Source: Gammaproteobacteria bacterium | Lineage (GTDB): Bacteria > Pseudomonadota > Gammaproteobacteria > Pseudomonadales > UBA6940 | Length of the DNA stretch: 27,086 nt | Assembly (NCBI GenBank): GCA_038135915.1 | Contig: JAYPYM010000019.1 | Coordinates: 1-27,086 of the forward strand | Direction of reading: 5' to 3' | In this document: piece by piece, positions 1,368-21,302 of the stretch | Numbering within the stretch: position 1 is the first letter of the stretch | Layout of the letters: each line of letters begins with the position of its first letter | The notes under the pieces: model-generated | Told to the model about the DNA's origin: nothing | Database searches by the model: none | What the model saw: the letters and a program-made list of their open reading frames with translations, nothing else | Program-made: the position numbers and the translations under genes

Positions 1368-2759
1368 CTAACTTTTCTCTGGAGCAGTTGCTTTAGATAA
1401 GCTTGGAGTTAAGCATATTTCATTAACACAGGCTTGAAAGTTACCATCCCTCAAATGAGTGTTTATCATATCGCCGGGCTTCACATCATGAATGCTGTGA
1501 ATGATTAAATGTTTTTTGGATTGGTGGGCGTGCTCACTGATGCTATACCCTCGCTCTAATGTATTCAGTGGGCTAAGGGCATTCAGCTGCGCAACTAGTT
1601 TGCTGAAGCTATGGCTGACGGATTCTCGTTGTTGATTGATCATTTGGTGGAGTTTTTCAAGCAAGATTGATATTTTTTGCCGATTTTCATCAAGCTGCTC
1701 ATTAATTCTGTGGGTTGTGAAGCGTTGGTTGGTCAGCTCTAACTCTTTTCGTTTCCACTTGATTAAATCTTTAGTGGTATAGGTCAGCTTAGACTCAAGA
1801 AAATCCAATTTCTGACTGATTTCTTCTAGTTTTTGTCTAGGGTGTTTTAGTCTCTTGTTGGTGCTGAGCCAGTTTGAGTTAGCGTGTTTTAATAATTGGC
1901 GTATTGAAGTCATGAGTCGCGCATCATATGACTTTAAAGCTTGGCCCAACTCTGATTGATCTGGTGTTGCTAATTCGGCGGCAGCTGAAGGTGTTGGGGC
2001 TCTTAAGTCTGCTACAAAGTCACTGATGCAAAAATCTGTTTCATGTCCAACAGCACTGATCACAGGTGTTTCACATGAAAAAATACCGCGAGCCAAGGCT
2101 TCTTCATTAAAGCACCAAAGGTCTTCCAAAGAACCGCCACCTCGACCGATAATAATGACCTCAACCTCTGGGTCGCGATCTGCATGCTCCAGCGCATTGG
2201 TAAGCTCTTGCGTAGCTTGGTGTCCTTGTACACTGGTGGGAAAAACCTTAACTTTAGCGATAGGATACCGCCTTTGTAGCACATGAAGAACGTCCCGAAT
2301 GGCTGCGCCGGTGGGGGAGGTGATGACACCAATTGTGCTGGGGTATTTTGGTATAGGGACTTTATGAGCATGGTTGAACAGACCTTCAGCTTCAAGCTTT
2401 CTCTTTAACAGATCAAAAGCTTTTCTAAGCGCGCCTTCTCCTTCGAGTTCCATGTTTTCAATAATAAGCTGGTAGTCGCCTCTTGGCGCGTAGATGCTGA
2501 TTCTGCCTTGCGCAATTACGTTAAGTCCGTCACTTGGTAAAAAGCCTAACCCAAACTGGCTACGACGAAACATGGCGCAACGAACTTGGCTGGAGTCATC
2601 TTTAAGCGTAAAGTACAGGTGACCCGATTTTGGCTGAGATAGGTTGGATATTTCGCCTTCCACCAAAATTTGAGCAAACTCAGTCTCTAGGAGTGCTTGA
2701 ACTTCCTGGTTCAGCCCAGTAACCGAAAAAATATGCTTTTCTGATAAAGTAGAATCCAT
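1368..2759 (-). CDS. xseA: Exodeoxyribonuclease VII large subunit
   Basis: 463 aa. It has an N-terminal OB-fold and a central catalytic region with 'IGRGGGSLEDLWCFNEE' and 'ISAVGHETD' motifs, followed by a long coiled-coil C-terminus typical of XseA. Confidence 0.93.
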   Translation of the reverse strand: MDSTLSEKHIFSVTGLNQEVQALLETEFAQILVEGEISNLSQPKSGHLYFTLKDDSSQVRCAMFRRSQFGLGFLPSDGLNVIAQGRISIYAPRGDYQLIIENMELEGEGALRKAFDLLKRKLEAEGLFNHAHKVPIPKYPSTIGVITSPTGAAIRDVLHVLQRRYPIAKVKVFPTSVQGHQATQELTNALEHADRDPEVEVIIIGRGGGSLEDLWCFNEEALARGIFSCETPVISAVGHETDFCISDFVADLRAPTPSAAAELATPDQSELGQALKSYDARLMTSIRQLLKHANSNWLSTNKRLKHPRQKLEEISQKLDFLESKLTYTTKDLIKWKRKELELTNQRFTTHRINEQLDENRQKISILLEKLHQMINQQRESVSHSFSKLVAQLNALSPLNTLERGYSISEHAHQSKKHLIIHSIHDVKPGDMINTHLRDGNFQACVNEICLTPSLSKATAPEKS

Positions 2760-2915: not shown

Positions 2916-3251
2916 ATGCCTATATGCAATGATAAAAAATCTGATCATAACGATGACCAGCCTGTTAGTACTTCAGTGGACAGTACCTCAGCGGATAGTA
3001 CCACAGTGGATATGGCTCGCTTGAGATGGCAATGTAGGCGCGGAATGAAGGAGCTAGAAGTGTTAATCCAGCCTTTTTTTGAGCAACACTTTTTGCATTT
3101 AGATAACGTTCAAAAAGATGACTTTGCTGAGCTGCTAAAGGCATCTGATGTTGAACTGTATGCGTGGTTTCTAGGTTATGAACAACCGGATTCAGATCGA
3201 TTGGCAGCACTCATTGACATGATTCAAAGTGCAGCATACTCAAAGGTTTAA
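2916..3251 (+). CDS. sdhE: SdhE/YgfY (CptB) family FAD assembly factor and antitoxin-like protein. The true start may be the internal Met at 3012 (MARLRWQCRRGM...).
   Basis: It carries the family signature 'RLRWQCRRGMKELEVLIQPFFEQHF...DDFAELLKASDVELYAWF', which aligns by eye with E. coli SdhE ('[25 protein letters not shown]...'). The N-terminal 32 aa (Ser/Thr/Asp-rich) are not typical of the family. Confidence 0.75.
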   Translation: MPICNDKKSDHNDDQPVSTSVDSTSADSTTVDMARLRWQCRRGMKELEVLIQPFFEQHFLHLDNVQKDDFAELLKASDVELYAWFLGYEQPDSDRLAALIDMIQSAAYSKV

Positions 3252-3675
3252 TTTCCGCCCATCTCAAATTGCCTTGAGGTTTTATTATATCCTTTACATA
3301 ATGGCAAATATTGGTATATGTATAGTAAATATGTCCGGAATTGTTAAAGTAATGTTGGTGCTTTATTTATACCTTAGCCTGAGATACTTTCTTCGGCCAA
3401 ATGCACTGCTTGAACATTCAAGGGCAATGAAGGCGCTGATACTCTATTCAGAGGGGGAGGTTAAAGCGGTTTTTAATTCAGGGAAAATCTTTAGTATTCA
3501 AGTTACTTTAATACAGAGATTTTTACCTGAGCTGATAAAGTACAGCGTACGAGATGAGCATAAGGGCGCTTCTCGCTATGTTAGAACATCTTGGCTGTTT
3601 GTCTGGCCGGATTCTCTCCCTCCAGAGGAATATAGATTGTTTAAAATGCGACTGAATTTAGAAGCGATTGCCTAG
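3229..3675 (+). CDS. YgfX/CptA-like inner-membrane protein (DUF1434). The start is uncertain; ATG at 3301 (MANIGICIV...) is an alternative.
   Basis: It sits immediately downstream of the sdhE-like gene, as ygfX does in E. coli. It has two hydrophobic N-terminal helices. The C-terminal region 'GEVKAVFNSGKIFSIQVTLIQRFLPELIKYSVRDEHKGASRYVRTSWLFVWPDSLPPEEYRLFKMRL' parallels YgfX 'GEIRLLMDGRLRW...LWLAADSMDEAEWRDLRRIL'. Confidence 0.5.
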   Translation: MQHTQRFNFRPSQIALRFYYILYIMANIGICIVNMSGIVKVMLVLYLYLSLRYFLRPNALLEHSRAMKALILYSEGEVKAVFNSGKIFSIQVTLIQRFLPELIKYSVRDEHKGASRYVRTSWLFVWPDSLPPEEYRLFKMRLNLEAIA

Positions 3676-8203: not shown

Positions 8204-8518
8204 CTATTTGTTATGGTTGGTGGTCTGGTCGGCCTGGATTTCCTCAAATGGAACTAAGAAATAGCCTGAAACACAAAGGCTGAAGGTTAGTAGCAGCAGC
8301 AGGGCGTCAGAAATATCGAAAAATGACCCTGCTAATGTAGGGATGAATACAATCGTTGCGGCCCCTGGCAATATGTAAGTCTCATTTACTTTTAGTTTGG
8401 ATTTGCAATTCGAGCACTCTAAGTCTCGATTGTAATTGCTTGAGAAATTAATAATATTAATAACCCGTTGTTTTAAACTAATTGCTGGTTTTTTGCATAC
8501 GGGGCACTTGTTTACCAT
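8204..8518 (-). CDS. Small zinc-ribbon membrane protein, hypothetical.
   Basis: It has two CxxC pairs ('CPVCKK...CSNCKS') followed by two hydrophobic helices. I chose the start at MVNKCPVC; the ORF track extends it to 8527. Confidence 0.45.
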   Translation of the reverse strand: MVNKCPVCKKPAISLKQRVINIINFSSNYNRDLECSNCKSKLKVNETYILPGAATIVFIPTLAGSFFDISDALLLLLTFSLCVSGYFLVPFEEIQADQTTNHNK

Positions 8519-8812
8519 ACTGATCACCAGGTTTGATTATATTCTTGACTATTATTATTGATATCAAAGTATTTTATCTTTTATTTTCCTCGGTCAGGAT
8601 ATATTAATTTGACCTTTATTTTCAATAGATATTGATAAAATGATACTAAAATACGACATGAATAATCCACATAAGAGGACAGGCCATTGTATTTGCGCTT
8701 AAATTAAGGGACTAATGGGTGGAATTCTTGAAAGAAGTAATACTAATAGGTTTGTAAAGAAGATATCAGTATTAGTCAATCACTAGTGTTAGCAAACAAG
8801 GGAGAAAGTGAA

Positions 8813-9217
8813 ATGCGTGGTGCGGGAGGGAGTCCAGGCGGGGTAGGCCAGTTTCTAATGGGTTTCGTGATGATGTGTATTGGCGGTTACCTATTTTTGA
8901 ACTCCATAGAAGTTACTTCGAATTTTGGCTTGAGCCGTACTTTCTTCAGTTTTGGTGGTATTAATTTGACCGGTGGCATGGTGCTTTTTCCATTTATTTT
9001 TGGTATTGGCATTGTTTTTTATAATGCTAAAAACCCTATTGGCTGGTTGCTGGTGATAGGTAGTTTGTCTGCATTTGCTTTTGGTATCATTAGTAGCATT
9101 GATTTTGTTTTTCGGCGTACTTCTGCGTTTGAGTTGATAACGATACTGGTCTTGGCGGTGGGTGGTCTTGGCATGTTTTTAAATTCATTAAAAAATTTTG
9201 AAGACAAGGAAACCTGA
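8813..9217 (+). CDS. Small polytopic membrane protein, hypothetical.
   Basis: ATG at 8813 is preceded by 'agggagaaagtgaa'. It has about four hydrophobic helices and a Gly-rich N-terminus. The ORF track starts it at 8786. Confidence 0.5.
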   Translation: MRGAGGSPGGVGQFLMGFVMMCIGGYLFLNSIEVTSNFGLSRTFFSFGGINLTGGMVLFPFIFGIGIVFYNAKNPIGWLLVIGSLSAFAFGIISSIDFVFRRTSAFELITILVLAVGGLGMFLNSLKNFEDKET

Positions 9218-9239: not shown

Positions 9240-12200
9240 CTAGTCTTTTAATTGATCGAGTACAGATTGAATTTTATCATGTGTTCTGAGGTCAATATCT
9301 AACTTTTTCTCCATGCTGCGAACCAATGGGAAGATTGAGTGTTCCATCGTATCGGCTAAGGCCTTCAGAATTCTATCGATACCTGGCACTGGCTGGTTAA
9401 TCACTTCTATATTATTCTGGGTGGATGCCAGGTGTTTGAATAGGTTTTCGATTGATTTGATCAAAGACTCTATTTCTAACTTCGTCTGGCTATTGTGTTC
9501 GCTGGATTGTTTGATGGCATCGGTAATGTTCGTCAACTCTGGTGCTAGGTGTTCATTCACCACCTTGTTAGTGACAAAGAGAATTTCTTTCAATAAACGT
9601 TTTCGGTCAACACTTTTCGATGCCATTGCTTGTGTTTGTTGATGTTCTACTTGGTCCCCTATGGCATTTATAGATTTAACCATATCATGCATTTGCATAA
9701 TGATTTTCTCGCCAATTTCACCGTCACCACCAATGGATTGGTTTCGCTTGAATTCTTCTTTAATGTAAGTCCATCTATGTTGGTCTTCTTCGGATAGCAT
9801 TCCCCTAATCTCTGCGAGTTTGAGCAGGTTTGCTTGTGCGCCTGTGGTTAATAGTTGTGCTTCACCGCGATAGTGGTCATCGATCATAAGCGCTAGTTCA
9901 TCTTCATTCATGACCGCAGAAATCTTTTCAGCCATTTTATTCATATTTCGGTAGCTACCCTGCAATTTGAAAGGTGGCTCTGTTCGGTATTGGTCATCTT
10001 GTGCGGCTGAAGCAATATAAGCTTGATTGACTTTTAATACGATGTCTTGAACCTTGAATAGTCTTTGTAATACTTCAGTAATCTCATTGATCTCTGCTGC
10101 TGAGTAAGGGTGAGAGAGTTCTGAAGCGGATATTTTTTCCCCTTTTGCTATTCGTACCAGTAGGTAAACGTCATCTAGGCGGCGAGTGGCGAGCGGTGCT
10201 AGTATTGCATTTGATGTTAAGCAGTTTTCAATGTAACTGAGTGCGAATACCTCATCCATGCCACCCAATATATCGCCTAGATTATAAATGTCGGCTCTGT
10301 TTGCGAGCATGTCGGGTATTTGGAAGGTCTCGCCGGATTCTGTATAAGGGTTTCCAGCCATGACAACACAGAACTTTTTACCCCTAAGGTCATATGTTTT
10401 TGTTTCGCCTTGCCAAACGCCTTCGATCTTTCGAGTACCGTCACAGAGTGATATAAACTTCTGCAAAAATTCTGGGTCGGTGTGTTGGATATCGTCGAGA
10501 TATAACATCACATTATTACCCATTTCTAGCGCCAAATTCAGTTTTTCTAGTTCTTGCTTGGCTGTTGAGTTCGGTGCTTGAGCTGAATCTAATGAGGTAA
10601 CTTGGTGACCTAAAGATGGGCAGTTAATCTTCATGAAGATCAGACCAAGCCTATTTGCAACATATTCCATCAGTGTTGTTTTACCATAGCCAGGTGGGGA
10701 TATCATCATTAACAGTCCCATCAAGTCTGTGCGCCGGTTTTCACCAATGGTGCCCATTTGTTTAGCCAGGTTATCACCAATAATAGGGAGGTAAACCTCA
10801 TTGATCAGTCGATTTCGAACGAATGAGCTTAATGGTTGTGCCTTGAAGCTTTCGAGTTTTAAGCTCTTCTTTGAGGCAGCTGATATGTCCGCTTTAATTT
10901 CCTGAAATGATCGGTATGCTGGTAGGTCCACTAAAGTATGGGTTGACATTCTGGAAAGAAAATCGTCGATGGTTCCCTGTATCTCGCCACTCTTAATACG
11001 ATTATGATCCCCTAATAAACCGGTACACACAAGTTTGAGCGTTGCTTGGGTTGGGCGATAGCTAAGTTTACCTTCTAGGCCTAGGTAGGCTGCAGCTTCT
11101 GGGATAAAATCTGCCCACTCAGTGAGAGAAGCCTTTTCTAGTACTGCAACCAACCAAGCTGAAATAAAGTCTATCTTTACTTTTGTCGGTAATATTTCCT
11201 CGTTGATGGTTTTTTCGAATGCTTTCCACGCTGCATCTCCAAGGCGCCGTTTTAATTCTGCTTTCATTTTCTGTGCAGGCTCACTTAGGATAAACGCAAA
11301 TTGATCTCTGATGAGCTCTTGAAAGAGATAACTTGCGGCAGAAGCAATATCGCTATCGCTACACGTTAACGCTTTGGTGTCACAAAAGTCATTAATTGCA
11401 ATTTTTATTTCAGCTTCTAGGTCTAGCTGGGCTTTGTTGTTATCGAGCTCATGAATCAAATGATTGGAAGATTTCGCTCTAAGTTGCCAGGTGGTGTAAA
11501 GTGCGGATGGTCCTTTCACCCCTGATGCGCCTTGGTGATTCATATGGTGCCAAAACCATTGCGCTAAACTCCGGCTGGTTGGTGTGTAGATCAGGCAGTC
11601 GCCTTGATCAAAGATGCGAATGAGCTGTTCAAGTATTTTTGCACCGTCATGATCATGAATACCTTTCTGATAGCCCTCTTTGTACCGAGGTACTGCAAAT
11701 TGACTCACAATTTTATTGATTTCGTCTTCTTTCAATAATGCGGTGCGTAGCATGTCTAAGCTTAGGCCATCACGGTGCTCACGCGCAGATTGGAAAATTA
11801 GGTAGGCCAGATACTCACCTCTGTATACGTTAATACTTTCAGATTCTAAGTGCCAATCCCAATATTTGGACAGTGCTGCAAGTTTTTCATCATGGATCGG
11901 TTGGAAGAAGTTTGTCCCTGTGATATGCAGAGACAATGTCTTATCTCTAGTTAATAAAGTCAGGTCTACAGGACTTGTGTTGACACTAAATTTATGGGTT
12001 GGCCCCATTTTTATAACTTGGCCGCCATCCTCGTATATGTCACTTTTATCTCTTAGACTCCTCAATGCTTGGTCTTTTGCAGTTTTAAACTGAGCATCAA
12101 TTTCATCAGAAAGTATCGGGTTATCTAGCTCTCTTAGCTCTTCACTTAGTTGATGTATTTTCATCACCATCGGATCGGCGACAAAATATGCGTTCAACTC

Positions 12201-14609
12201 ATCTGCATCCTGAAATTTGAGTGATCGCCTTTCCACGCTTGAAAGGACGCGTTTAGCAGCATTAAATAGGCTTTGACATCTCCGCTCTCGCTCATCGAGT
12301 AGTTGTTGCTTATGAGATTCGAATGTTTGATAAAGTTGCTCACGTTGGGTTACGATGTCAGCGATGAATTCATCAAAGCTACTGAACTGACTTTCTAAGG
12401 TTTCGATCTGTAATAGCAATCTAGACAGCTGCTCGTCACAGGCCTCAGGTGTATCTGCCATATTCAGTGCCTGAATGATACTTTGAGAAAACAGCTTAAA
12501 TTGAGCGCTAAAAGACTCAGTGGCTTCGGAGGCGCCTAAGCTTTTATTCTTCTTGTCGGCTCGCGCCTTGCATTGGTTTAGCTTGCCGTAGATCTCAGAT
12601 ATCATATCAATGATCTGGGTGCGGACTCGGGCATCACTCACTTCTAAGGTAGCAACCAATTCAGAAATTAGATCTAGCTGGGTTACTGTTTCTTGAATCG
12701 CCGTTTGAATGGGCTCAAGATCAACAATTGCTGTTGTTTTGTCTATTTGCTCAGAGAAATGGTGATATTTATCATGGTAAGGCGCAAGGGATTCTGGTTT
12801 TTGAAGGAAAACCAGTGTTTTTTCGCTCAAGTTGGTATAGGCATCTTCCAACGATTGGTTGAACTCATCAAGCGCATCTAGGTTCATGTAACGATATGAC
12901 TTGAGGGTGATGATATGACCGCGTTGCTGCCTGATTTCGTGTAGGGTGCTAACAAAATCTTCCACCGTTTCAAACTGTATAGAGCGAATGCGTCCAATCA
13001 GCTGGTCTTTTTTAGATTCAGCATCCTTTAGTGCTGAATTAGATTCCAGCTGAATAGATTGAACCTTTTCGTACTCATCGATGATCTGCTCTGCATTCTT
13101 CTGTATGTCTTGTATTTGGGTGGCGATGTTTTTCGTTTCTGGGTCCGATAACCAGTAATGATCGTCAAATAGTTTTTGCGTTGACCTTAGTAATGAATCG
13201 TATAATTTGGAGGAGACGTCTTTCTCCTGTAAGAAGCCACAAATACTGTACAAATCGGATATGCCGCGGACTAAGGCAGAGTTACCGATTTTGCCATAAA
13301 AGCTATCGTTTACCGGGGTTTTTTCAGCCTGTTCATCGCTGATGTAAGGGGTCTTCCAAAATTGTAATGGGTGATTACGAGTGGGCTCTTTTTCAGCGGA
13401 GAAGATCGCCAACTTGCCAGTGTCGAATAAAGCGTAGCCGTGGCCGATGATAGGGTTGACAATCTGTTTGTTAATGAGATTGTAAGAGTAGAGCGCTTTG
13501 GTGCCCTCAATTGGTTCATAGAATATGTATAGAACATCTTCACCATTAGGGGAGCGGATGGTTTTCTTGTATTTTAAACCATTAATATCTTGGTCGAATA
13601 TCTTATGTTCTCCCGTTTCAAGATAGATGCCGCCTGGGAAAATAATACCATGATCTTCAGGTAGTCGAACACAAGAGCTACCTATGTGGTCAATTCTGAT
13701 TACCTGCTCAACTAAGGGGTTGAACACAAAATAGCGAAATTCTTTCTCTTGATAAGGTCTAATTTTGAGTAGAATGAGGTTGCCCACTTCAGCGTAAAGA
13801 TATTCGGCATCATCTAGTGTTTGGTTTTCGTCGACAACCTTCTCGTTGTATATGCCTAAGCCATCTGAGGTGTTGTTTTCTATTTTTATGGTGAGGTCGC
13901 CGCCAATGGTTTCTACGAAAACCTTATCAAGAATATTTACGTGTGCGTGCTCGCCGTCAACGAAGTCTTCTCTTGAGGTGTTTTGCCATTCAAAATCAAT
14001 GGCTGGAGGTAGCTCGATATCTCTTTCGCCACGGTTATCAATGTACTCTGGTGTAGTCTCTTTGCCCTCTAATGCCCAACGAAATACCTTTATATCATCC
14101 ACTCGCTCGCCGGTTTGGAAGCTTGCTAATAAAAAGCCTTTATTGATAGTGAGTAACGAAAGTTGTGACTGTGAATAGTATTGGTACAGTTCGTGAAAAT
14201 CTCGAAGAAAATTTGAGTTATGAAGAAATGTATCTGATTTTGAGCAAGGTACTATTTCAAAGCTTGGGTTTTCAGGATCGCCACCTTTCTTGATGTCGTA
14301 GAGTGCGAAAACGTCTTCCACCTGAATATCTTTTCTTAGGCCTACAAATACATTATAGCCAAATAACAACTGGTTTCCGATCTGTAAAATATCTCTTGCA
14401 ATACAGTTGTTTTCTGTGCGAATGCGAGAACGTGCCAACACACTTAGATCTGATTGTCCAAACGCCTTAATTCTAGCGGCATTTAAACCTGCTACTTCTT
14501 GATGGAGGCTGCTTTGTAGCGCGTCCAATCGTTTCCGAATAACATCGTAGGCACCACCTTCGGCGACCGCTTGGTCGACCGATGATTGTTCTTGTTCGTT
14601 ATTACTCAT
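9240..14609 (-). CDS. Giant 1789-aa protein with a single MoxR/AAA_5-like AAA+ ATPase module (about aa 1290-1460). It is otherwise uncharacterised: a beta-rich N-terminal region, then extensive coiled coils.
   Basis: Walker A 'ISPPGYGKTTL' maps to nt about 10677-10710. Walker B-like 'VMLYLDDIQH' maps to about 10491-10511. The MoxR-type sensor segment 'VVMAGNPYTESGETFQIPDMLANRADIYNLGD' matches the MoxR '[22 protein letters not shown]' pattern. The ATG lies 2 nt after the flotillin stop (14609 versus 14612). Confidence 0.88.
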   Translation of the reverse strand: MSNNEQEQSSVDQAVAEGGAYDVIRKRLDALQSSLHQEVAGLNAARIKAFGQSDLSVLARSRIRTENNCIARDILQIGNQLLFGYNVFVGLRKDIQVEDVFALYDIKKGGDPENPSFEIVPCSKSDTFLHNSNFLRDFHELYQYYSQSQLSLLTINKGFLLASFQTGERVDDIKVFRWALEGKETTPEYIDNRGERDIELPPAIDFEWQNTSREDFVDGEHAHVNILDKVFVETIGGDLTIKIENNTSDGLGIYNEKVVDENQTLDDAEYLYAEVGNLILLKIRPYQEKEFRYFVFNPLVEQVIRIDHIGSSCVRLPEDHGIIFPGGIYLETGEHKIFDQDINGLKYKKTIRSPNGEDVLYIFYEPIEGTKALYSYNLINKQIVNPIIGHGYALFDTGKLAIFSAEKEPTRNHPLQFWKTPYISDEQAEKTPVNDSFYGKIGNSALVRGISDLYSICGFLQEKDVSSKLYDSLLRSTQKLFDDHYWLSDPETKNIATQIQDIQKNAEQIIDEYEKVQSIQLESNSALKDAESKKDQLIGRIRSIQFETVEDFVSTLHEIRQQRGHIITLKSYRYMNLDALDEFNQSLEDAYTNLSEKTLVFLQKPESLAPYHDKYHHFSEQIDKTTAIVDLEPIQTAIQETVTQLDLISELVATLEVSDARVRTQIIDMISEIYGKLNQCKARADKKNKSLGASEATESFSAQFKLFSQSIIQALNMADTPEACDEQLSRLLLQIETLESQFSSFDEFIADIVTQREQLYQTFESHKQQLLDERERRCQSLFNAAKRVLSSVERRSLKFQDADELNAYFVADPMVMKIHQLSEELRELDNPILSDEIDAQFKTAKDQALRSLRDKSDIYEDGGQVIKMGPTHKFSVNTSPVDLTLLTRDKTLSLHITGTNFFQPIHDEKLAALSKYWDWHLESESINVYRGEYLAYLIFQSAREHRDGLSLDMLRTALLKEDEINKIVSQFAVPRYKEGYQKGIHDHDGAKILEQLIRIFDQGDCLIYTPTSRSLAQWFWHHMNHQGASGVKGPSALYTTWQLRAKSSNHLIHELDNNKAQLDLEAEIKIAINDFCDTKALTCSDSDIASAASYLFQELIRDQFAFILSEPAQKMKAELKRRLGDAAWKAFEKTINEEILPTKVKIDFISAWLVAVLEKASLTEWADFIPEAAAYLGLEGKLSYRPTQATLKLVCTGLLGDHNRIKSGEIQGTIDDFLSRMSTHTLVDLPAYRSFQEIKADISAASKKSLKLESFKAQPLSSFVRNRLINEVYLPIIGDNLAKQMGTIGENRRTDLMGLLMMISPPGYGKTTLMEYVANRLGLIFMKINCPSLGHQVTSLDSAQAPNSTAKQELEKLNLALEMGNNVMLYLDDIQHTDPEFLQKFISLCDGTRKIEGVWQGETKTYDLRGKKFCVVMAGNPYTESGETFQIPDMLANRADIYNLGDILGGMDEVFALSYIENCLTSNAILAPLATRRLDDVYLLVRIAKGEKISASELSHPYSAAEINEITEVLQRLFKVQDIVLKVNQAYIASAAQDDQYRTEPPFKLQGSYRNMNKMAEKISAVMNEDELALMIDDHYRGEAQLLTTGAQANLLKLAEIRGMLSEEDQHRWTYIKEEFKRNQSIGGDGEIGEKIIMQMHDMVKSINAIGDQVEHQQTQAMASKSVDRKRLLKEILFVTNKVVNEHLAPELTNITDAIKQSSEHNSQTKLEIESLIKSIENLFKHLASTQNNIEVINQPVPGIDRILKALADTMEHSIFPLVRSMEKKLDIDLRTHDKIQSVLDQLKD

Positions 14610-14611
14610 GA

Positions 14612-16591
14612 CTATGCTGCTGTATTTTTGCTGGTCAAGTGTTTCATCAGGGTGGAGACAGTATTGCTCTTGTCTGCTAGTCCATCAATTGCTTTGCCGA
14701 TAGATAGGGACTTAGCAAAGTTATTGAAGAAGTGTTCTTCACCGCCAACTATATCGATGTGGGCTTTTTCTAATGCTTGAGCTAGTACTTCTGCGTTTTC
14801 TTTTGCAATCTCTTTACCTGCATCAATAGATGCTAGCGCTTCTTTAAGCGCCGTTTCCAGTGTCATTCTGAATTCTTCATGATCCCTGGCATCTTTCGAC
14901 ATTGCATCCATAGCGGTAAATTTATCTGTTAGGCCGTCAGCCTCTGCTTTGAATTGCTCGCGGGTCACGTTTGCATTCACCATGCCCATTTCTTTTGCAG
15001 CGTTGGCTTCGGAATTGCCTTTGGCTTGTATAACGTTTGCTTCTGCCATGCCCATTTCTCGCGCAGCATTGGCTTCAGAGTCGCCTTTTGCTTTTATCAC
15101 GTTAGCATCAGCTAAGCCTTCCTTCTCAAATGCATCAGCTTTAGCTTCCATGACTTTAGCCTCAGCCAGCCCTTCTTTCTCAAAGGCTTCGGCTTTAGCT
15201 TCCATCACTCTGGCTTCTGCAATGCCTTTCGCTGCCTGCTCAGCTTGAACCCCCTCTGCTAATTTTTTCTTAGCATCGGCTTCTTTAGCTGAAGCTTCTA
15301 ATTCTGCATTTGCCAGGGTAACAACCTCAAGTGCTTTATGTTTTGCAGCGAGTTCTTCGGCTTCTGCGGCTTTAATATGTTTAACTTTCTCTTCTTCAGC
15401 AGAGGCTTCCGCAGCTAATACTCTAACTTGCTTAGCACGATCTGCTTCTGAGACTTCTCTAACCTCTTTGATATGCTCTTCTTCGATAGCGACAGTCTTG
15501 TCTACTGCTACGCGCTCGCGAATCACATTGGCTATTTCTTTCTTTTCAATTTCAACAGCTTTTTCTGCTTCAATTGTTTTGAGTTCGACTTCTCTTTCTC
15601 GACTGACTTTTTCTAGGTCTCTGGCTTTAATCACACGCTCTTCTTCGATCGCAACGGCACGCATTCGATTTTGTTCAGCGACCTCAATTTCTCTTTGTTG
15701 ATTTTCTTTCTGAACCGATAATTCCTGATTGACTTGTATGGTTTTAGATTCTGCTTTTTTGCGCTCTTCTTCTTGAATACGAAGTGTTTCAGCTTCCTCT
15801 CTTGCTTTGATAGATGCAATTTCTCTGGCTTGTTTTTCCTCTGCCTCTGCCTGTTGACGTTCTAATTCGAGCATAGCCTCTTTAGTTGCAACATTTTTTT
15901 TCTTAATAGCAAGTTCTTCGTCACGTTCGAAAATATTGGTTCGTACGTTCTGTTGAGCTGTTAGTTCCGTAATTTTCTTGATTCCTTCAGCATCTAGTAT
16001 GTTATTTGGGTCAAGTGCTTTTTTCGGTGTTTGTTCTAAGTAGTCAATTGCTACATCCTCTAGAACATAACCATTTAAGTCTTCGCCAATTACTTCGATA
16101 ATTTGATCTCTAAATTCCTGTCGGTTCTCGAAAAGATTCACAAAATCTATTTTTTTACCAACTGTTTTAAGGGCCTCTGAAAATTTGGCTTGAAACAGCT
16201 CATAAACTGCAGCTTTGTCAGACGCACGATCCACCCCGATGGATTTAGCAACTTTAAGTACGTCTTCTTGCGTTTCATTCACCCTCAGGTAAAAAGCAAC
16301 TGTAATGTCAGCTCTAAGATTATCATGGCATATGAGGCCGTCTTGACCTCGACGATCAACTTCGAGTGTAATGAGTGATATTTTCATTAGCTCTTTTTTA
16401 TATATAATGGGCCAAACCAGTGCGCCTGTGAATTTTACCTTAGGCTTTGGAGATAAGTCGTTAACGATCAGTGCGGTGCCTTGTTCCACTTTAATGTAAA
16501 AGGCTTTAACCGCAGCTGCGATGCCTATAATGGTGACGAATACAATCAGTACGCCAATGATGAGAGGGAATATAACAGATGCGTCAGCCAT
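14612..16591 (-). CDS. yqiK: Flotillin / SPFH (band 7) family protein, YqiK-like, with a C-terminal repeat-rich coiled coil.
   Basis: It has an N-terminal TM helix ('FPLIIGVLIVFVTIIGIAAAV'), then an SPFH domain. A long Glu/Ala/Lys coiled coil follows with tandem 'EAKVMEAKA(E/D)AFEKEGLA' and 'EANVI(Q/K)AKG(N/D)SEANAA(K/R)EMGM' repeats. Confidence 0.9.
   Translation of the reverse strand: MADASVIFPLIIGVLIVFVTIIGIAAAVKAFYIKVEQGTALIVNDLSPKPKVKFTGALVWPIIYKKELMKISLITLEVDRRGQDGLICHDNLRADITVAFYLRVNETQEDVLKVAKSIGVDRASDKAAVYELFQAKFSEALKTVGKKIDFVNLFENRQEFRDQIIEVIGEDLNGYVLEDVAIDYLEQTPKKALDPNNILDAEGIKKITELTAQQNVRTNIFERDEELAIKKKNVATKEAMLELERQQAEAEEKQAREIASIKAREEAETLRIQEEERKKAESKTIQVNQELSVQKENQQREIEVAEQNRMRAVAIEEERVIKARDLEKVSREREVELKTIEAEKAVEIEKKEIANVIRERVAVDKTVAIEEEHIKEVREVSEADRAKQVRVLAAEASAEEEKVKHIKAAEAEELAAKHKALEVVTLANAELEASAKEADAKKKLAEGVQAEQAAKGIAEARVMEAKAEAFEKEGLAEAKVMEAKADAFEKEGLADANVIKAKGDSEANAAREMGMAEANVIQAKGNSEANAAKEMGMVNANVTREQFKAEADGLTDKFTAMDAMSKDARDHEEFRMTLETALKEALASIDAGKEIAKENAEVLAQALEKAHIDIVGGEEHFFNNFAKSLSIGKAIDGLADKSNTVSTLMKHLTSKNTAA
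14955..15240. repeat. Coding tandem repeats (about 66-bp and about 54-bp units, two copies each) inside the flotillin 3' half.
   Basis: Two 66-bp units lie at about 14962-15027 and 15028-15093. Two 54-bp units follow at about 15110-15225. The antisense ORF 14949-15248 is an artefact of these repeats. Confidence 0.7.
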
Positions 16592-16622: not shown

Positions 16623-17312
16623 TTATAACTTTGATTTCATTTCTTCAAAGACAGACTTTGGTAATACCTTGTAAATATTTTCCGATTCAATATACTCAAA
16701 CAGCACTACTTTATCGCCTCTGGAAAGCCCGTGATCTTCATCTGTACGAGCTTTTAGAATTAGCCCAGCGCCACCGTCTTCTACGCTTACTTCACCAAAC
16801 TTTGTATTAAGCGTTGAAGTACGGACGATTGCATCTCGACCAATAAAGTTCTCAGTGCTGTGCTCTTTGGTGATTTCTTTAAAGAAAGGTTTTAATGGTT
16901 TAATGCATGCAGCAGTAATGAGCGCACTGAGATAGCTTGCGAATAAAAATATCACTAATTTCCAAGCAAAACTTATGATGCCGGCATCTGGCATATGGGG
17001 CGCCGTAAAATAAATGCTGTAGTAAGAAATGAGCCAGCCGAAGAATGCGATGATAGACAAAGATACTGTAAATGGAACCCCATCTAGCCTTAGCTTCATG
17101 AGTAAACCACCAAGATTTGTGAGCCCATCTGTGTGTAACGAATCTCCTTGTGCCGCAGCGCTAACATCTATGATATCAATGTCCACTACGCCTAGAATAG
17201 CCGCTAGCCAGAATAGCACAGACAACAGTAGCAAAAAACTAAATACAACAGTCGGGAATGAGGAGATTGTTTGATAAAATGGGTCAAAACTTTCATGTAA
17301 AAAAATTAGCAT
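16623..17312 (-). CDS. yqiJ: YqiJ-like inner-membrane protein with an NfeD-type C-terminal OB-fold domain (flotillin partner).
   Basis: It has multiple hydrophobic helices. They are followed by 'NFIGRDAIVRTSTLNTKFGEVSVEDGGAGLILKARTDEDHGLSRGDKVVLFEYIESENIYKV', which is an NfeD-like beta-barrel. It sits immediately upstream of the flotillin gene, 31 bp away. Confidence 0.78.
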   Translation of the reverse strand: MLIFLHESFDPFYQTISSFPTVVFSFLLLLSVLFWLAAILGVVDIDIIDVSAAAQGDSLHTDGLTNLGGLLMKLRLDGVPFTVSLSIIAFFGWLISYYSIYFTAPHMPDAGIISFAWKLVIFLFASYLSALITAACIKPLKPFFKEITKEHSTENFIGRDAIVRTSTLNTKFGEVSVEDGGAGLILKARTDEDHGLSRGDKVVLFEYIESENIYKVLPKSVFEEMKSKL

Positions 17313-17522: not shown

Positions 17523-18215
17523 TTAGATTCTCATACAGACCGTGTAGTAACGATTTTCCACGTAAGTTGTGGTGGTGGTGCCGGTAGCTGGAGCTTGGAT
17601 AGTACCTCGTACATTAGGGTTACTACGGGTTGCTCTTAGATTTCCAGTTTCACCATTACCGTTGTCTACCAGTATATCTAGACTGCTAGCAGCACTAGAA
17701 GGTAAACCGCTCATGCATACTTTTACGCCGGTTAAGCCATTGTTGATGCTTGCAGTTGTAACACCGACTAGCCCGCCAAATGGGTTTTTTAGTAAGGCTG
17801 CTTGACCAGCCACTGATGGATCGCCTTTGATAAATTCACCTGCTTTTAAGTGTTGCCAATAATTATCGCTCTCGCTACTTCCAGGTGTTCCTGGGTTAAA
17901 GGTTTGCAGGTTGTTTATGTTAATGACTCCATTTCTATTGCCCGCTGCAGTGACGTCTGACCATAAAGCACCACGATTTTGTAGCCTAGTTAGGTCGCCA
18001 TCATCTCCCGGTTGGGCGCGATGTTGTGCTACATAGTCTTTGTGCGCCGCTGCTACATTATTAATGATTGCTGCCGCCTTCTTTACCTTTGCTCCTTGAA
18101 TAAGCGATGAACCTTTTAGAACACCTCCGATGAGCAGTCCAATCACCACGAGTACAATTGCCATTTCGATGAGCGATACACCTGACTCTCTCGATTCAAT
18201 TTTCCGATGTTCCAT
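17523..18215 (-). CDS. Type IV pilin (prepilin with N-terminal methylation motif). C-terminal Cys pair; candidate major pilin.
   Basis: Class III signal 'MEHRKIESRESG|VSLIEMAIVLVVIGLLIGG'. It has C-terminal 'VCMSG...TVCMRI' cysteines. Confidence 0.8.
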   Translation of the reverse strand: MEHRKIESRESGVSLIEMAIVLVVIGLLIGGVLKGSSLIQGAKVKKAAAIINNVAAAHKDYVAQHRAQPGDDGDLTRLQNRGALWSDVTAAGNRNGVININNLQTFNPGTPGSSESDNYWQHLKAGEFIKGDPSVAGQAALLKNPFGGLVGVTTASINNGLTGVKVCMSGLPSSAASSLDILVDNGNGETGNLRATRSNPNVRGTIQAPATGTTTTTYVENRYYTVCMRI

Positions 18216-18244
18216 TTTGTTACCCCTGAAGATTTTCTATGGCT

Positions 18245-18991
18245 TTAATTGGCTTGCCCGGACTCAACGAGTGTATATGCGATTTGATTCGAAGAAATCC
18301 AGGTTAATATATCATCGAAAGCCGCTCCAGCGGCCTCGCTTGGTTCTCGGTTTACAAATATAGCATTAAGGTTGTCTATATTCTCCGATTGAAAGGGAGC
18401 TGGCTGTGAGGCATCGGGTCCTAAAGAGAAAATGACTGCAGCAATGTTTGTAGCGACTGTGGTAGCACATGCAGTGTTGTTACAAATCTGTATGTCTGGT
18501 GCTGTCGCTGAGAGTGTCGATATATTAAATGTGTCTATAGCGTATGCAAAAGTGCCCACACTTGTTAGGCTATAACGGATAGGGTTTCCCCAATGATCAG
18601 TTAATATGTTATTCGCATCGACAATACCATTGAGTCCTAAATCTGCATTTGGTATGAATCCATGTTCGCTTCTGCAATTTGTATTAGCACCACCAACTCT
18701 TGATTCAGCACCATTTGAATTTGTTGGTGTGATAGTGGCTGGGCAGGGTAGGTGGCCATTTTGGGCTAGATATCCTAAAATAGCTGCTTCAGCTTCTTGA
18801 ATAAGCGTTTCTGTAGACTGGATATTTTTTCGTGTCTGTTGGGAGCTTAGCGGTCCAAGAATAGAGCTAATTAGAAGCCCTACGATCACCAGCACTACAG
18901 CAATTTCTATCAGTGTAAAGCCACGTGGTGAGCTTTGAATGTGAGAAGAAGTATTAAAGCTCGAGTACTTTGATTTGGTCGTTGAAGGCAT
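18245..18991 (-). CDS. Prepilin-type protein with an unusually long 24-aa leader.
   Basis: '...SSPRG|FTLIEIAVVLVIVGLLIS'. 'gagga' lies 9 nt upstream of the ATG. It overlaps the preceding gene by 38 nt. Confidence 0.72.
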   Translation of the reverse strand: MPSTTKSKYSSFNTSSHIQSSPRGFTLIEIAVVLVIVGLLISSILGPLSSQQTRKNIQSTETLIQEAEAAILGYLAQNGHLPCPATITPTNSNGAESRVGGANTNCRSEHGFIPNADLGLNGIVDANNILTDHWGNPIRYSLTSVGTFAYAIDTFNISTLSATAPDIQICNNTACATTVATNIAAVIFSLGPDASQPAPFQSENIDNLNAIFVNREPSEAAGAAFDDILTWISSNQIAYTLVESGQAN

Positions 18992-20039
18992 CTGATAGAT
19001 TCCTCGTATTTCTAAAAATATAATCTAGATCGTTATCTGTATTGTCATCTTCGTAAAAATTCGGAAGATCCAAAATGGTTCTATCCTGGGCGCCGATTGG
19101 TATGCCAGGAGAAACAATCAGCGCATCAGGAGTTGCTGTTACATCTCCTGAAATAGAAATGCAGTCTAGGTCTCCATCAGCACATACCCGGTAGTGGATT
19201 TGGTCGTTCCAGTGAAGATGCACCCATGAGGAGTTTGTCAGTAGCGGGACTGGTGTAGTGCAGCTAACAGGGTCACTTCCGGATGAAAATGGTACAAATC
19301 CTGAAAGTGTACCTGCATTCGATGTTCCGTCTGCGGTGATACTTGCGGAAGGAAAATTACCACAATTATTTCTATAATCAGTCAGTGCGTCTTCAGTAAT
19401 AGCTAATACGCGTTGCTCTATTGTTTGCCAGAACAAACTGGTGTCAATTGCAGATACACGGTCATTAGTGGTATTGCTGGTTTGTGCGGTAAAATCAGTG
19501 TCTCCATCAGCATTCTCTCCTTCTAGATAATTAATGGCATTGATTGAGGTCCAGGTCTGTGTATTGATAGCTTCACCCGGGAGGAATAGAATCGCTGCTG
19601 CGGGATTTCCATCAAGCATTAAGTTGCTGGCTAGTGATGAATTAAGGCTTGTAGTGGGGAAGTCATTTCTAGTGTAATTGAGAGCTACTGAATACCATAC
19701 TGGCGCACCATGAGCATCTGTTTCAACATTCATATTTAGGGTTTGGAATGGGAACAGGCCAATATCATTATCGCAAATGCCGCTAGTACGATTTTCTAGC
19801 CCATCTCCGGTTGTATCAGGGCAGGGTAGTTGGCCTGCTGGCGCTTGTTGCAACGCAAAACCGAGTAAGTTTTTTCTTAACTGTTTTAATAGTTTGGTAT
19901 TCAAGCTAGATTGTTTTAAATCTTGTTTGTTTAGGGAAATCGACGCTATTTTTGCGCTGGTGATGGTAATCATTATCAGTGCTAGCAATGCTAGGACTGC
20001 AATACCTTTCGTAGATTCTGACTTAATGCCCATTCTCAT
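18954..20039 (-). CDS. Minor pilin / pseudopilin-like protein (GspK/PilX-like N-terminus), 361 aa.
   Basis: Hydrophobic N-terminus 'KGIAVLALLALIMITITSA' without the canonical G-F-T-L-I-E motif, as in GspK-type minor pseudopilins. It has a large Cys-containing periplasmic domain. Its start overlaps the upstream stop (ATGA). Confidence 0.55.
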   Translation of the reverse strand: MRMGIKSESTKGIAVLALLALIMITITSAKIASISLNKQDLKQSSLNTKLLKQLRKNLLGFALQQAPAGQLPCPDTTGDGLENRTSGICDNDIGLFPFQTLNMNVETDAHGAPVWYSVALNYTRNDFPTTSLNSSLASNLMLDGNPAAAILFLPGEAINTQTWTSINAINYLEGENADGDTDFTAQTSNTTNDRVSAIDTSLFWQTIEQRVLAITEDALTDYRNNCGNFPSASITADGTSNAGTLSGFVPFSSGSDPVSCTTPVPLLTNSSWVHLHWNDQIHYRVCADGDLDCISISGDVTATPDALIVSPGIPIGAQDRTILDLPNFYEDDNTDNDLDYIFRNTRNLSDAFNDQIKVLEL

Positions 20040-20647
20040 GGTTTTGATATCTTCTCCAATATTAGGCTTTCAAGTATCATGCTTTCCAACTCAGCATCTG
20101 GAATGCCTGTTGTACCATCTACGCTCTTTATATCTTCAGTCTTGTCTGGCTTTTGTGTTTCGGCAATTCTTTTTGAGTGGTCTTTTTGTTGTATTTCGTA
20201 ATGTTCTTTTACTTCATTGCTGTTTAAGAACCAGGTTTGGCCTGTCTTGAAGGTCATTTCTAGGTCATTTGCTTGCACATGTACTTTGCCAGGCTGCTCT
20301 TTCAGGGGGTTAGACTGGAGAAACTCATTTTTTTGGTCGTCACTGTAAATTAAACGGTTGTTGCTCCAAACTGTTGTCTTACCATCGTGTCTAATGATGA
20401 CGCCGGACAATTTAACTGATTCAGTTGTTATGGCGTTTTCTGGTTGTTCTGAAGATACCATCTCAGGTGCGTTAGTTCTAGTAGTTTCGGGTGTAGCGGT
20501 CTCTGTTGGTGTATCTTCAGGAGTCGCGGTGCGTAGGTGATCTAGGAATGCTCTTTGGTCTTGTGTGGTGAATAGCCTGCCAAAGTTTGAGTTAGCGTAA
20601 ACAAGGGTGTTAATCATGAGCATCAAGATGAGTAGGCTAGATCGCAT
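20036..20647 (-). CDS. Periplasmic protein with signal peptide and Thr/Pro/Glu-rich linker (PilP/MshK-like position).
   Basis: I chose the start at MRSSLLILMLMINTLVYANS (ATG 20647); the ORF track extends it to 20767. A 'TPEDTPTETATPETTRT' linker is followed by a beta-rich domain. Confidence 0.5.
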   Translation of the reverse strand: MRSSLLILMLMINTLVYANSNFGRLFTTQDQRAFLDHLRTATPEDTPTETATPETTRTNAPEMVSSEQPENAITTESVKLSGVIIRHDGKTTVWSNNRLIYSDDQKNEFLQSNPLKEQPGKVHVQANDLEMTFKTGQTWFLNSNEVKEHYEIQQKDHSKRIAETQKPDKTEDIKSVDGTTGIPDAELESMILESLILEKISKP

Positions 20648-21302
20648 ATGGGTCCTCAACATTATTTCCTTGTTGTTCGTTAAGTGGTAAGAACGTATAC
20701 CATGATAATCTACACTCTCCATTGAGACCTTGGAATAGGTCTTGCTCCAATTTACTAGGGCTCCCAAGCTCCGATTGAATCACTTTTAAATAACAATATT
20801 CGACACTGAATATGCCGTTCGCTTTGTTTCTTAGTTCCTTGAACAGATTAAAGAAATCACCTTCATGCATAATTTTCATGTCTAACTTCATGGGTGTTGC
20901 TTCAAATTGTGATGAGGGGTGGGTGTAAAAGTCTACCGGTTCGCTGGATATGAGGGTTTTCTCAACTGTATATTCTAGTTTCGGTAATGCTAATTTTTCA
21001 CTGGTTCCTTTCAATGTTTCTAACCATTGTAGTCGTTGGGTGTTACCTACAACACCTTTCTCAACCAATGGCAGGTATCTTTTGATATATTGATCATATG
21101 TTTTTTTCTGCTCAGCTGACTGAAAGTTTAACTGTTCCTGTTCGAAAACAGTATTTTCTGCTGCTTTCAATTGATCATTCATATTTGATGCATAGATTCC
21201 TGACAACACAGTAGTGGAAAGCGAAATTGTCAGCATGATCAGTCCGACACTATGTGCTTTCCAGTTAACCTGATTATTGTCATTGCTCATAATAGGGCTC
21301 AC
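20637..21302 (-). CDS. PilO/GspM-like bitopic inner-membrane pilus assembly protein.
   Basis: Short cytoplasmic N-terminus, one TM ('VGLIMLTISLSTTVLSGIYA'), a coiled coil, then a periplasmic domain. GTG at 21302 or ATG at 21290. Confidence 0.55.
   Translation of the reverse strand: MSPIMSNDNNQVNWKAHSVGLIMLTISLSTTVLSGIYASNMNDQLKAAENTVFEQEQLNFQSAEQKKTYDQYIKRYLPLVEKGVVGNTQRLQWLETLKGTSEKLALPKLEYTVEKTLISSEPVDFYTHPSSQFEATPMKLDMKIMHEGDFFNLFKELRNKANGIFSVEYCYLKVIQSELGSPSKLEQDLFQGLNGECRLSWYTFLPLNEQQGNNVEDPYAI

Follow-up and report, generated by a model that had tools for sequence, protein, structure and literature searches.

An operon that joins a flotillin and a YqiJ/YuaF-type membrane protein to a giant ATPase has been described computationally by Ravi et al. 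(2024, mSystems, PMC11237479), including in an abbreviated three-gene form. The authors report that abbreviated operons without PspA are the more widespread ones and propose ATP-dependent membrane dynamics. Here, we analyze one such operon on a 27,086-nucleotide (nt) stretch of DNA from a gammaproteobacterium (contig JAYPYM010000019.1, assembly GCA_038135915.1; hereafter the window), in which the giant ATPase is encoded by a 1789-amino-acid (aa) open reading frame (ORF) at 9240..14609 on the minus strand. The reading that we favor, with moderate confidence, is that this protein is an ATP-using remodeller of flotillin/YqiJ or PspA membrane assemblies, belonging to a family with the domain order DUF3686-DUF7902-AAA+.

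Observations from other bacteria provide a background for such a role. SPFH proteins recruit PspA in Bacillus subtilis (PMC8581546, by its title and as cited in PMC10936438), and according to a 2025 review, bacteria appear to have no Vps4-like regulator of PspA (PMC7619361). In Pseudomonas aeruginosa, the products of PA3728-PA3732 are called phage shock proteins and were induced in all phage-infected samples (PMC12041424), PA3728 ("ATPase") appears in a list of genes with recurrent mutations in isolates from cystic fibrosis (PMC8190622), and PaFlo3 has a short-NfeD partner gene (PMC13086221). From the gene order in a related Pseudomonas paraeruginosa locus (L071), we infer that PA3728 is the orthologue of the giant ATPase; PaFlo3 appears to be the P. 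aeruginosa counterpart of the operon flotillin.

The window copy resembles the family as set out in Ravi et al. 2024 both in its domains (a propeller-like DUF3686, a coiled coil with DUF7902 and a C-terminal AAA+ module) and in its operon (a Band-7/flotillin gene with a YqiJ/YuaF-type gene, in the abbreviated form). An Asp-Asp Walker B motif, a Walker A motif that begins with Ser and the features that bear on the AAA+ clade, all described below, find no mention in the available part of that paper.

The flotillin operon and its relatives

The ATPase gene is the last of a translationally coupled operon in which a yqiJ-like gene is followed by a yqiK-like flotillin gene and then by the ATPase, with the flotillin stop codon 2 nt ahead of the ATPase ATG. 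The flotillin (659 aa; 14612..16591, minus strand) comprises a transmembrane segment, an SPFH/Band_7 domain and a long Glu/Ala-rich coiled coil, and is 31% identical to Escherichia coli YqiK (E 1e-44). A Pfam scan of the whole flotillin ORF returned nothing even at an E value of 10, while aa 1-230 alone recovered Band_7 (E 8e-8); we suspect that the low-complexity coiled coil masked the match. The C-terminal part of the flotillin carries two in-frame tandem arrays (14967-15209, minus strand) with periods of 66 and 54 nt, ~2.2 copies each and an 80% match, which encode 'NVIxAKGxSEANAAxEMGM' and 'VMEAKAxAFEKEGLAxA' repeats in the Glu/Ala-rich coiled coil. The first gene of the operon (16623..17312, minus strand) encodes a YqiJ/DUF1449-like small membrane protein of 229 aa with transmembrane helices and a C-terminal beta domain, an NfeD-type partner of SPFH proteins. 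Its relationship to E. coli YqiJ is detected by the family profile alone (90.7%, E 1.3e-6; 99% for a Hymenobacter "DUF1449 family protein"), as a pairwise BLAST comparison of the two proteins was negative. NCBIfam and PADLOC each matched nothing among the ATPase, the flotillin and the YqiJ-like protein. Promoter and terminator scans gave counts at or below shuffled expectation and were not used as evidence.

This gene association is widely conserved. Among 80 genome loci with a homologue of the ATPase, a flotillin lies upstream in 74 and a YqiJ-like gene upstream in 70, and the exceptions are mostly contig ends. Where the flank is long enough to judge, clear exceptions are limited to two loci from Methyloprofundus metagenome-assembled genomes (L023 and L026), in which neither a flotillin nor a YqiJ-like gene was detected in the 6.7 to 10 kb upstream of the ATPase. 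The operon is found across Pseudomonadota, Bacteroidota and Actinomycetota: the order in Hymenobacter (Bacteroidota) is Tir, PspA, DUF1449, flotillin and ATPase, and in Streptomyces (Actinomycetota) the flotillin is followed by the ATPase. In 57 of the 80 loci the operon opens, on its upstream side, with genes for DUF2170 (CesT/Tir-like) and PspA_IM30. This CesT/Tir-PspA dyad is absent from the window, which therefore bears the abbreviated operon form. The window copy is only ~55% identical to its nearest database relatives, and the 27-kb window has none of the CesT/Tir, PspA, PLD, rhomboid and Zn-ribbon genes that many relatives carry. Besides the ATPase itself, the flotillin and YqiJ-like genes are the only window genes conserved with the ATPase in the related loci.

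Directly downstream of the ATPase, relatives often have further genes, of the rhomboid family in 41 loci, with a PLD/HKD domain in 29 and of the TFIIB-type zinc-ribbon kind in 28; examples of these downstream genes lie at L002:15247-15819, L071:15213-15920 and L001:15298-15831. The presence of a membrane protease and a phospholipase-like enzyme beside a flotillin/PspA operon is a hint that lipids or membrane proteins are turned over there.

The giant ATPase and its AAA+ module

The giant protein, recognized by ORF call and Pfam, has an identical entry in the public database (P0001). Its N-terminal part is DUF3686 (aa 35-485; 13155..14507, minus strand; Pfam E 1e-187), consisting of a helix followed by a beta-propeller-like domain. 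An AlphaFold2 (AF2) model of aa 12-500, with a mean predicted local distance difference test score (pLDDT) of 58.6, contains the N-terminal helix, ~25 strands and helices from aa ~445. Every Foldseek match to this model was a beta-propeller, among them BtuK1, lactonase-like proteins, a nucleoporin, prolyl-oligopeptidase propellers and the clathrin terminal domain, with a best E value of 3.9e-5 and poor TM-scores. These matches support a beta-rich, propeller-like N-terminal part, for which a sequence-only reading of this DNA had considered a propeller or a beta-sandwich; the blade number is provisional. The same reading had predicted coiled coil at aa 500-1000. Its first portion stands, in that aa ~500-850 are low in Pro and Gly and have a 3.5-residue hydrophobic periodicity compatible with coiled coil by a crude composition test, and DUF7902 (aa 607-689; 12543..12791, minus strand; Pfam E 5e-25) lies within this heptad-periodic helical region; by the same test, aa ~850-900 appear beta-rich and do not fit the prediction.

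The AAA+ alpha/beta core follows at aa ~1290-1446 (10272..10742, minus strand), within the range 10230-10745 (aa ~1289-1460) that the sequence-only reading had flagged. At the end of the protein, a tail motif NQPxPG...PLV..M.KK.DIDLRTH is conserved (aa ~1736-1789; 9243..9404, minus strand; consensus and near-invariant columns). This tail, comprising the last ~55 residues, is preceded by a variable low-complexity linker and resembles a short docking peptide; some relatives apparently do not have it, with matches that stop near aa 1650. Database homologues share the order of DUF3686, coiled coil/DUF7902 and C-terminal AAA+.

The flagged segment carries SPPGYGKTT, MLYLDDIQH and AGNPYTESGETFQIPDMLANRAD. 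The Walker A variant SPPGYGKTT (aa 1304-1312; 10674..10700, minus strand; located by pattern search and alignments) contains the one GK[ST] P-loop in the entire protein, with its Lys and Thr intact. It begins with Ser where the textbook pattern has Gly or Ala, a detail absent from the sequence-only reading, and a strict [GA]xxxxGK[ST] search accordingly gives no match. That reading had placed a single ATPase module late in the giant protein and had seen neither a second NTPase domain nor a vWA/MIDAS motif; a Pfam scan and the GK[ST] pattern over the 1789 aa likewise found no vWA or further NTPase domain, and the Pfam profiles AAA, AAA_22 and AAA_5 scored above their cut-offs in the module. In the Walker B variant MLYLDDIQH (aa 1368-1376; 10482..10508, minus strand; from alignments), the Mg-binding Asp of the hhhhDE pattern is retained and a second Asp stands in place of the catalytic Glu, family-wide; in the profile alignments this motif pairs with DnaA LLIDDIQF and with LDEI of Lon and RuvB. 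The third quoted motif, NPYTESGETFQIPDMLANRAD (aa 1420-1440; 10290..10352, minus strand), was located in the ORF as well, so that all three were present where they had been reported.

These motifs go far beyond a chance resemblance and are fixed across the family. The Walker A motif and DDIQH are invariant or nearly so in 120 database homologues and 81 genome homologues, and among 150 representatives of 50%-identity clusters DDIQH occurs in all listed variants (149 sequences) and SPPGYGKTT in 131 of 139. The Asp-Asp Walker B that had been singled out is thus a property of more than 300 homologues from several phyla. In the same three sets, 'AGNPYTE..F.IPDMLANRAD' and 'QGSYRNM' of the lid are also invariant or nearly so. 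The stretch from the end of strand beta-4 onward (aa 1417-1440; 10290..10361, minus strand) includes N1420, a candidate sensor-1 Asn that comes after the modelled beta-4, and, in 'IPDMLANRAD', R1438, a candidate arginine finger that aligns with the Arg of Lon 'LLDRME'; both residues are invariant, and their roles are proposed from near-invariance and position. QGSYRNMNKM (aa 1550-1559; 9933..9962, minus strand) is the best-conserved motif of the helical lid/extension and holds a candidate sensor-2 Arg.

The AAA+ module is the most conserved portion of the giant ATPase, being 54-70% identical between this gammaproteobacterial copy and the Streptomyces, Deinococcus and Hymenobacter copies. A database search gave at least 4987 relatives, of which the closest besides the identical entry is only ~55% identical; among the names given to them at source are "DNA repair ATPase", "AAA family ATPase" and "MoxR-like ATPase". 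An exhaustive profile search of 1.84 billion representatives returned 1024 proteins at E<=1e-3 and 448 at <=1e-30. With only 1024 matches at E<=1e-3, the family is strongly constrained and, by sequence, stands as a discrete group apart from other AAA+ families. Taken together, the module is probably catalytically equipped as well as conserved, with unusual but fixed Walker motifs.

To place the module among AAA+ groups, we compared Pfam profiles, structure searches and profile alignments. An AF2 model of aa 1200-1660 has a mean pLDDT of 59 overall and a usable core at pLDDT 71-90; the AF2 input alignments for the two models were shallow, with 20 and 15 sequences that were 67-73% and 55-61% identical to the query. 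In this model, alpha-1 follows the P-loop and is succeeded by beta-2 (aa 1324-1329), a loop and short helix (aa 1330-1347), alpha-2 (aa 1348-1363), beta-3 with the Walker B motif (aa 1367-1372), alpha-3, a predicted pre-sensor-1 beta-hairpin, and beta-4 (aa 1413-1417), after which comes N1420. The hairpin (aa 1394-1407; 10389..10430, minus strand) consists of strands at aa 1394-1399 and 1402-1407 (model residues 195-200 and 203-208; pLDDT ~75-83) and aligns with the hairpin region of Lon. The protein thus has the alpha/beta core fold plus helical lid of the AAA+ superfamily, and Foldseek against the PDB returned AAA+ proteins only. NorQ (4.1e-5), CbbQ (4.5e-5) and RuvB (5.3e-5) ranked first, followed by Skd3, MCM, ClpX, FlrC and Lon. 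NorQ and CbbQ are nominally at the top but tied with ClpB-D2 and Lon, so that the structure scores do not separate the candidate clades; the poor TM-scores and root mean square deviations in the fold searches follow from the mean pLDDT of 59 in both models.

The sequence-only reading had called the module MoxR/AAA_5 (dynein)-type. On that view, the protein would be a MoxR/AAA_5 (dynein/midasin-type) chaperone-like ATPase that matures a partner complex or inserts cofactors into it, as RavA, CbbQ and NorQ do. We consider this unlikely. The module does share with the MoxR family (RavA, CbbQ, NorQ) a single AAA+ module, a pre-sensor-1 hairpin and the 'N-P...E..G...[IL]P....R' layout after beta-4, and NorQ and CbbQ are its nominal top structural matches. 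Over aa ~1298-1423, Pfam gave AAA at 29.7 bits, AAA_22 at 27.6 and AAA_5 at 23.0, all above curated cut-offs, and AAA_5 was matched by 20 of 20 family members (positions 2-125 of 139), marginally, at 23.0-25.1 bits against a cut-off of 22. The MoxR profile AAA_3, by contrast, stayed below its cut-off of 27 bits, at 13 bits, and matched 10 of 20 members, with a best E value of 0.048; its weak HMMER alignment covers positions 3-125 of 131 and reproduces the motif alignment on which the MoxR label had been based.

Profile alignments, made because the structure searches had tied, favor RuvB, ClpX and Lon over RavA, YehL and McrB. With hhalign, a 129-sequence family profile was aligned to annotated E. 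coli K-12 proteins; as each template was a single sequence, the scores serve for comparison only. RuvB scored 95.8% (74 columns), ClpX 91.4% (66 columns), FtsH 90.3% (34 columns, P-loop only) and Lon 88.0% (129 columns), ahead of McrB (64.8%; 22 columns, P-loop), DnaA (61.5%; LLIDDIQF on LYLDDIQH), the MoxR protein YehL (27.8%; 21 columns), PspF (26.1%; 84 columns) and the MoxR protein RavA (21.4%; 83 columns). The Lon alignment is the sole one to span the whole alpha/beta core, the hairpin and the 'IPxxLxxR' motif, pairing 'IPAPLLDRMEVIRLSG' with 'IPDMLANRADIYNLGD', whereas those to RavA, YehL and McrB (the last an AAA_5 protein) extend no further than the P-loop or the Walker A-B region. Among the profile alignments tested, those to the E. 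coli MoxR proteins are among the weakest. 'IPDMLANRAD' aligns equally well to Lon 'IPAPLLDRME', and a motif of this type is therefore a general trait of hairpin-bearing AAA+ proteins and not specific to MoxR.

Other features also separate the module from MoxR proteins. No helix-2 insert was seen in the confident part of the model, where aa 1330-1347 form a short helix and loop without a hairpin (pLDDT 83-90); this is provisional, as it comes from one AF2 model with a shallow input alignment. Searched alone, the C-terminal half of the module had no PDB sequence match at E<=10, to solved MoxR-type chains or others. There is no vWA/MIDAS partner in the operon, and no VWA domain was found in any window ORF scanned. 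A search of the 80 related loci for MoxR-like genes, sought as comparison sequences, found none. PDB sequence searches with the whole protein and with the family profile gave P-loop-level matches only, to p97, Rix7 and RuvB; the best-E PDB match of the profile, which placed the C-terminal tail on a designed coiled coil, was discarded as spurious. The module also departs from the classic AAA clade: PF00004 covers only profile positions 2-68 of 131, its N-terminal half, the FtsH alignment is limited to the P-loop, and the pre-sensor-1 hairpin is present.

The module should not, then, be classed as MoxR/dynein-type. It is a divergent AAA+ domain that is, if anything, nearer to the HslU/ClpX/Lon/RuvB group than to MoxR or dynein. 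With the HslU/ClpX/Lon/ClpAB-D2/RuvB group it has in common a pre-sensor-1 hairpin, no helix-2 insert in the model, and its best profile alignments (RuvB, ClpX and Lon). Unlike that group, it has DD in place of DE, no aromatic pore-loop-1 residue, an apparently enlarged lid without detectable similarity to known lids, and no protease or DNA-junction partner, and it is fused to a 1290-aa N-terminal region of propeller and coiled coil. The lid (aa ~1445-1600) gave no significant hhalign alignment to nine E. coli AAA+ proteins, which is why GSYR is named only as a candidate sensor 2. The loop aligned with the Lon pore-loop motif GHRRTYIG reads GHQVTSLD and contains no aromatic residue of the aromatic-hydrophobic pore-loop-1 type. 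Its Gly-His, which aligns with the Gly-His of Lon, belongs to an invariant 'CPSLGH' (aa ~1330-1335; ~10605-10622, minus strand) that sits after strand beta-2, and this segment may be a non-canonical substrate-contact loop.

Proposed role and its alternatives

In the role that we propose for the giant ATPase, the 1789-aa protein would be cytoplasmic, with the flagged segment as its sole ATPase engine, and would oligomerize through the AAA+ module. The propeller, the long coiled coil and/or the C-terminal tail would recruit it to the cytoplasmic face of the flotillin/YqiJ assembly, where it may use ATP binding and hydrolysis to assemble, remodel or dismantle the flotillin/YqiJ scaffolds or any PspA polymers docked there. 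A low basal hydrolysis that needs a partner trigger is suggested by the invariant DD of Walker B, in which case the motor may act as a gated switch; from the sequence, slow or switch-like hydrolysis, as the sequence-only reading also proposed, is plausible.

Such a role would be comparable to that of Vps4 on ESCRT-III in archaea and eukaryotes, in function and not in ancestry. PspA is an ESCRT-III-family protein, and the operons of most relatives are extended by a CesT/Tir-like chaperone and PspA. In those relatives, as with Vps4, an AAA+ protein is genetically coupled to an ESCRT-III-family protein at the membrane, a possible functional analogy. Unlike Vps4, the giant ATPase is not a classic-clade AAA protein (PF00004 matches its N-terminal half only), has no MIT domain and has a pre-sensor-1 hairpin, and in the window the link to PspA is indirect. 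Vps4 is also ~4x smaller. We regard as possible, though tentative, the more specific proposal that the giant ATPase is a motor missing so far from the bacterial picture, one that uses ATP to remodel or disassemble flotillin (SPFH) cages and/or PspA polymers, a functional Vps4 counterpart from a different AAA+ lineage that works as a partner-gated switch via its DD motif.

Several points weigh against a remodelling role. The function is deduced from gene neighborhood and domain logic, and we found no experimental work on any family member in the literature. Deletions of paFlo genes, PaFlo3 included, produced no pronounced phenotype (PMC13086221). The loop at the pore-loop-1 position, GH-x-V-T/L-S-L-D, contains no aromatic, and this speaks against an unfoldase of the classical threading type. 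Since the window has neither PspA nor CesT, any link to PspA would act in trans. Both AF2 models are of low confidence overall, and the absence of a helix-2 insert, the lid architecture and the number of propeller blades are accordingly provisional.

The DD Walker B could instead mean a protein that binds ATP and essentially does not hydrolyze it, serving as a scaffold or nucleotide sensor that tethers or organizes flotillin assemblies, with DD abolishing catalysis. The invariance of both Walker variants, DD in Walker B and Ser at the start of Walker A, is compatible with such a scaffold, as are the pore loop without an aromatic and the very long coiled-coil and propeller parts, which are typical of scaffolds. 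We nevertheless judge this alternative improbable. The candidate sensor-1 Asn, the Arg where an arginine finger would lie and the pre-sensor-1 hairpin are all invariant across phyla, with 54-70% identity of the module among Streptomyces, Deinococcus and gammaproteobacteria, and such constraint on residues that would act catalytically in trans is expected of an active oligomeric ATPase. DnaA, moreover, has the same Asp-Asp-Ile-Gln Walker B and so offers a precedent for DD in a working AAA+ protein. The ATPase of DnaA is weak and partner-stimulated, and DnaA still hydrolyzes ATP when so stimulated. The overall similarity to DnaA is weak (61% probability), and DnaA, unlike the module, belongs to the initiator clade and is without the pre-sensor-1 hairpin.

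The phage induction of PA3728-PA3732, together with the PLD/HKD hydrolase or rhomboid gene adjacent to the ATPase in some relatives, raises the question as to whether the operon is an anti-phage or conflict system in which the giant ATPase senses infection and acts via membrane effectors. This seems to us quite improbable, as induction by phage is also expected of an envelope-stress (phage-shock) operon and the PADLOC result was empty for all three operon proteins. No copy of the AAA+ module was found among 50,697 phage records, and only 13 turned up among 72,556 plasmid records, most of these being megaplasmids or chromids; the operon is conserved at high identity over several phyla, and the window flanks hold housekeeping and pilus genes, not defense genes.

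A DNA repair function, which derives from inherited names only (the Pfam description of DUF3686, "ATPase involved in DNA repair", and the NCBI name "DNA repair ATPase"), is very improbable, given a single AAA+ P-loop with no DNA-binding, nuclease, SMC/Rad50 or ABC features found, obligate operon partners that are membrane proteins, no NCBIfam match, and literature searches for DUF3686 or PF12458 that returned zero papers.

Genomic surroundings and significance

The operon is flanked by xseA, sdhE/cptA-like, GST and DUF1223 genes on one side and by an MSHA-type pilus cluster on the other. The latter, an MSHA-type type IV pilus/type II secretion-like cluster, lies directly upstream of the operon (17523-26843, minus strand) and encodes two prepilin-type N_methyl proteins, T2SSF, a T2SSE ATPase with MshEN, a TPR protein and four ORFs without a Pfam match; none of these genes is conserved with the ATPase in the related loci. 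On the other flank, xseA (1368-2759, minus strand) adjoins overlapping sdhE (Sdh5 flavinator) and cptA/ygfX-like (Cpta_toxin) genes (2916-3675, plus strand), a pair of the SdhE-CptA type. Two small ORFs, 8786-9217 (plus strand, convergent) and 8204-8527 (minus strand), adjoin the 3' end of the ATPase gene as putative genes with no Pfam match and no counterpart in the related loci.

The window copy is a fairly divergent addition to a catalogued, computationally described family and does not represent a new kind of system. The interest lies in the possible role of the family as the energy source of bacterial flotillin/PspA systems and not in anything unique to the window. We found no support for the "DNA repair ATPase" label that relatives carry, and the residues K1310, D1372/D1373, N1420 and R1438 are now defined for mutation. 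Bacterial flotillins and PspA/Vipp1 are now regarded as ancient membrane-organizing and membrane-repair machines, and the giant-ATPase family could power them. A large family, with 448 cluster representatives at E<=1e-30, it is highly conserved across phyla and tied by gene order to flotillin/YqiJ and, in most cases, to PspA, and these traits make it a strong candidate for the energy source of flotillin/PspA systems.

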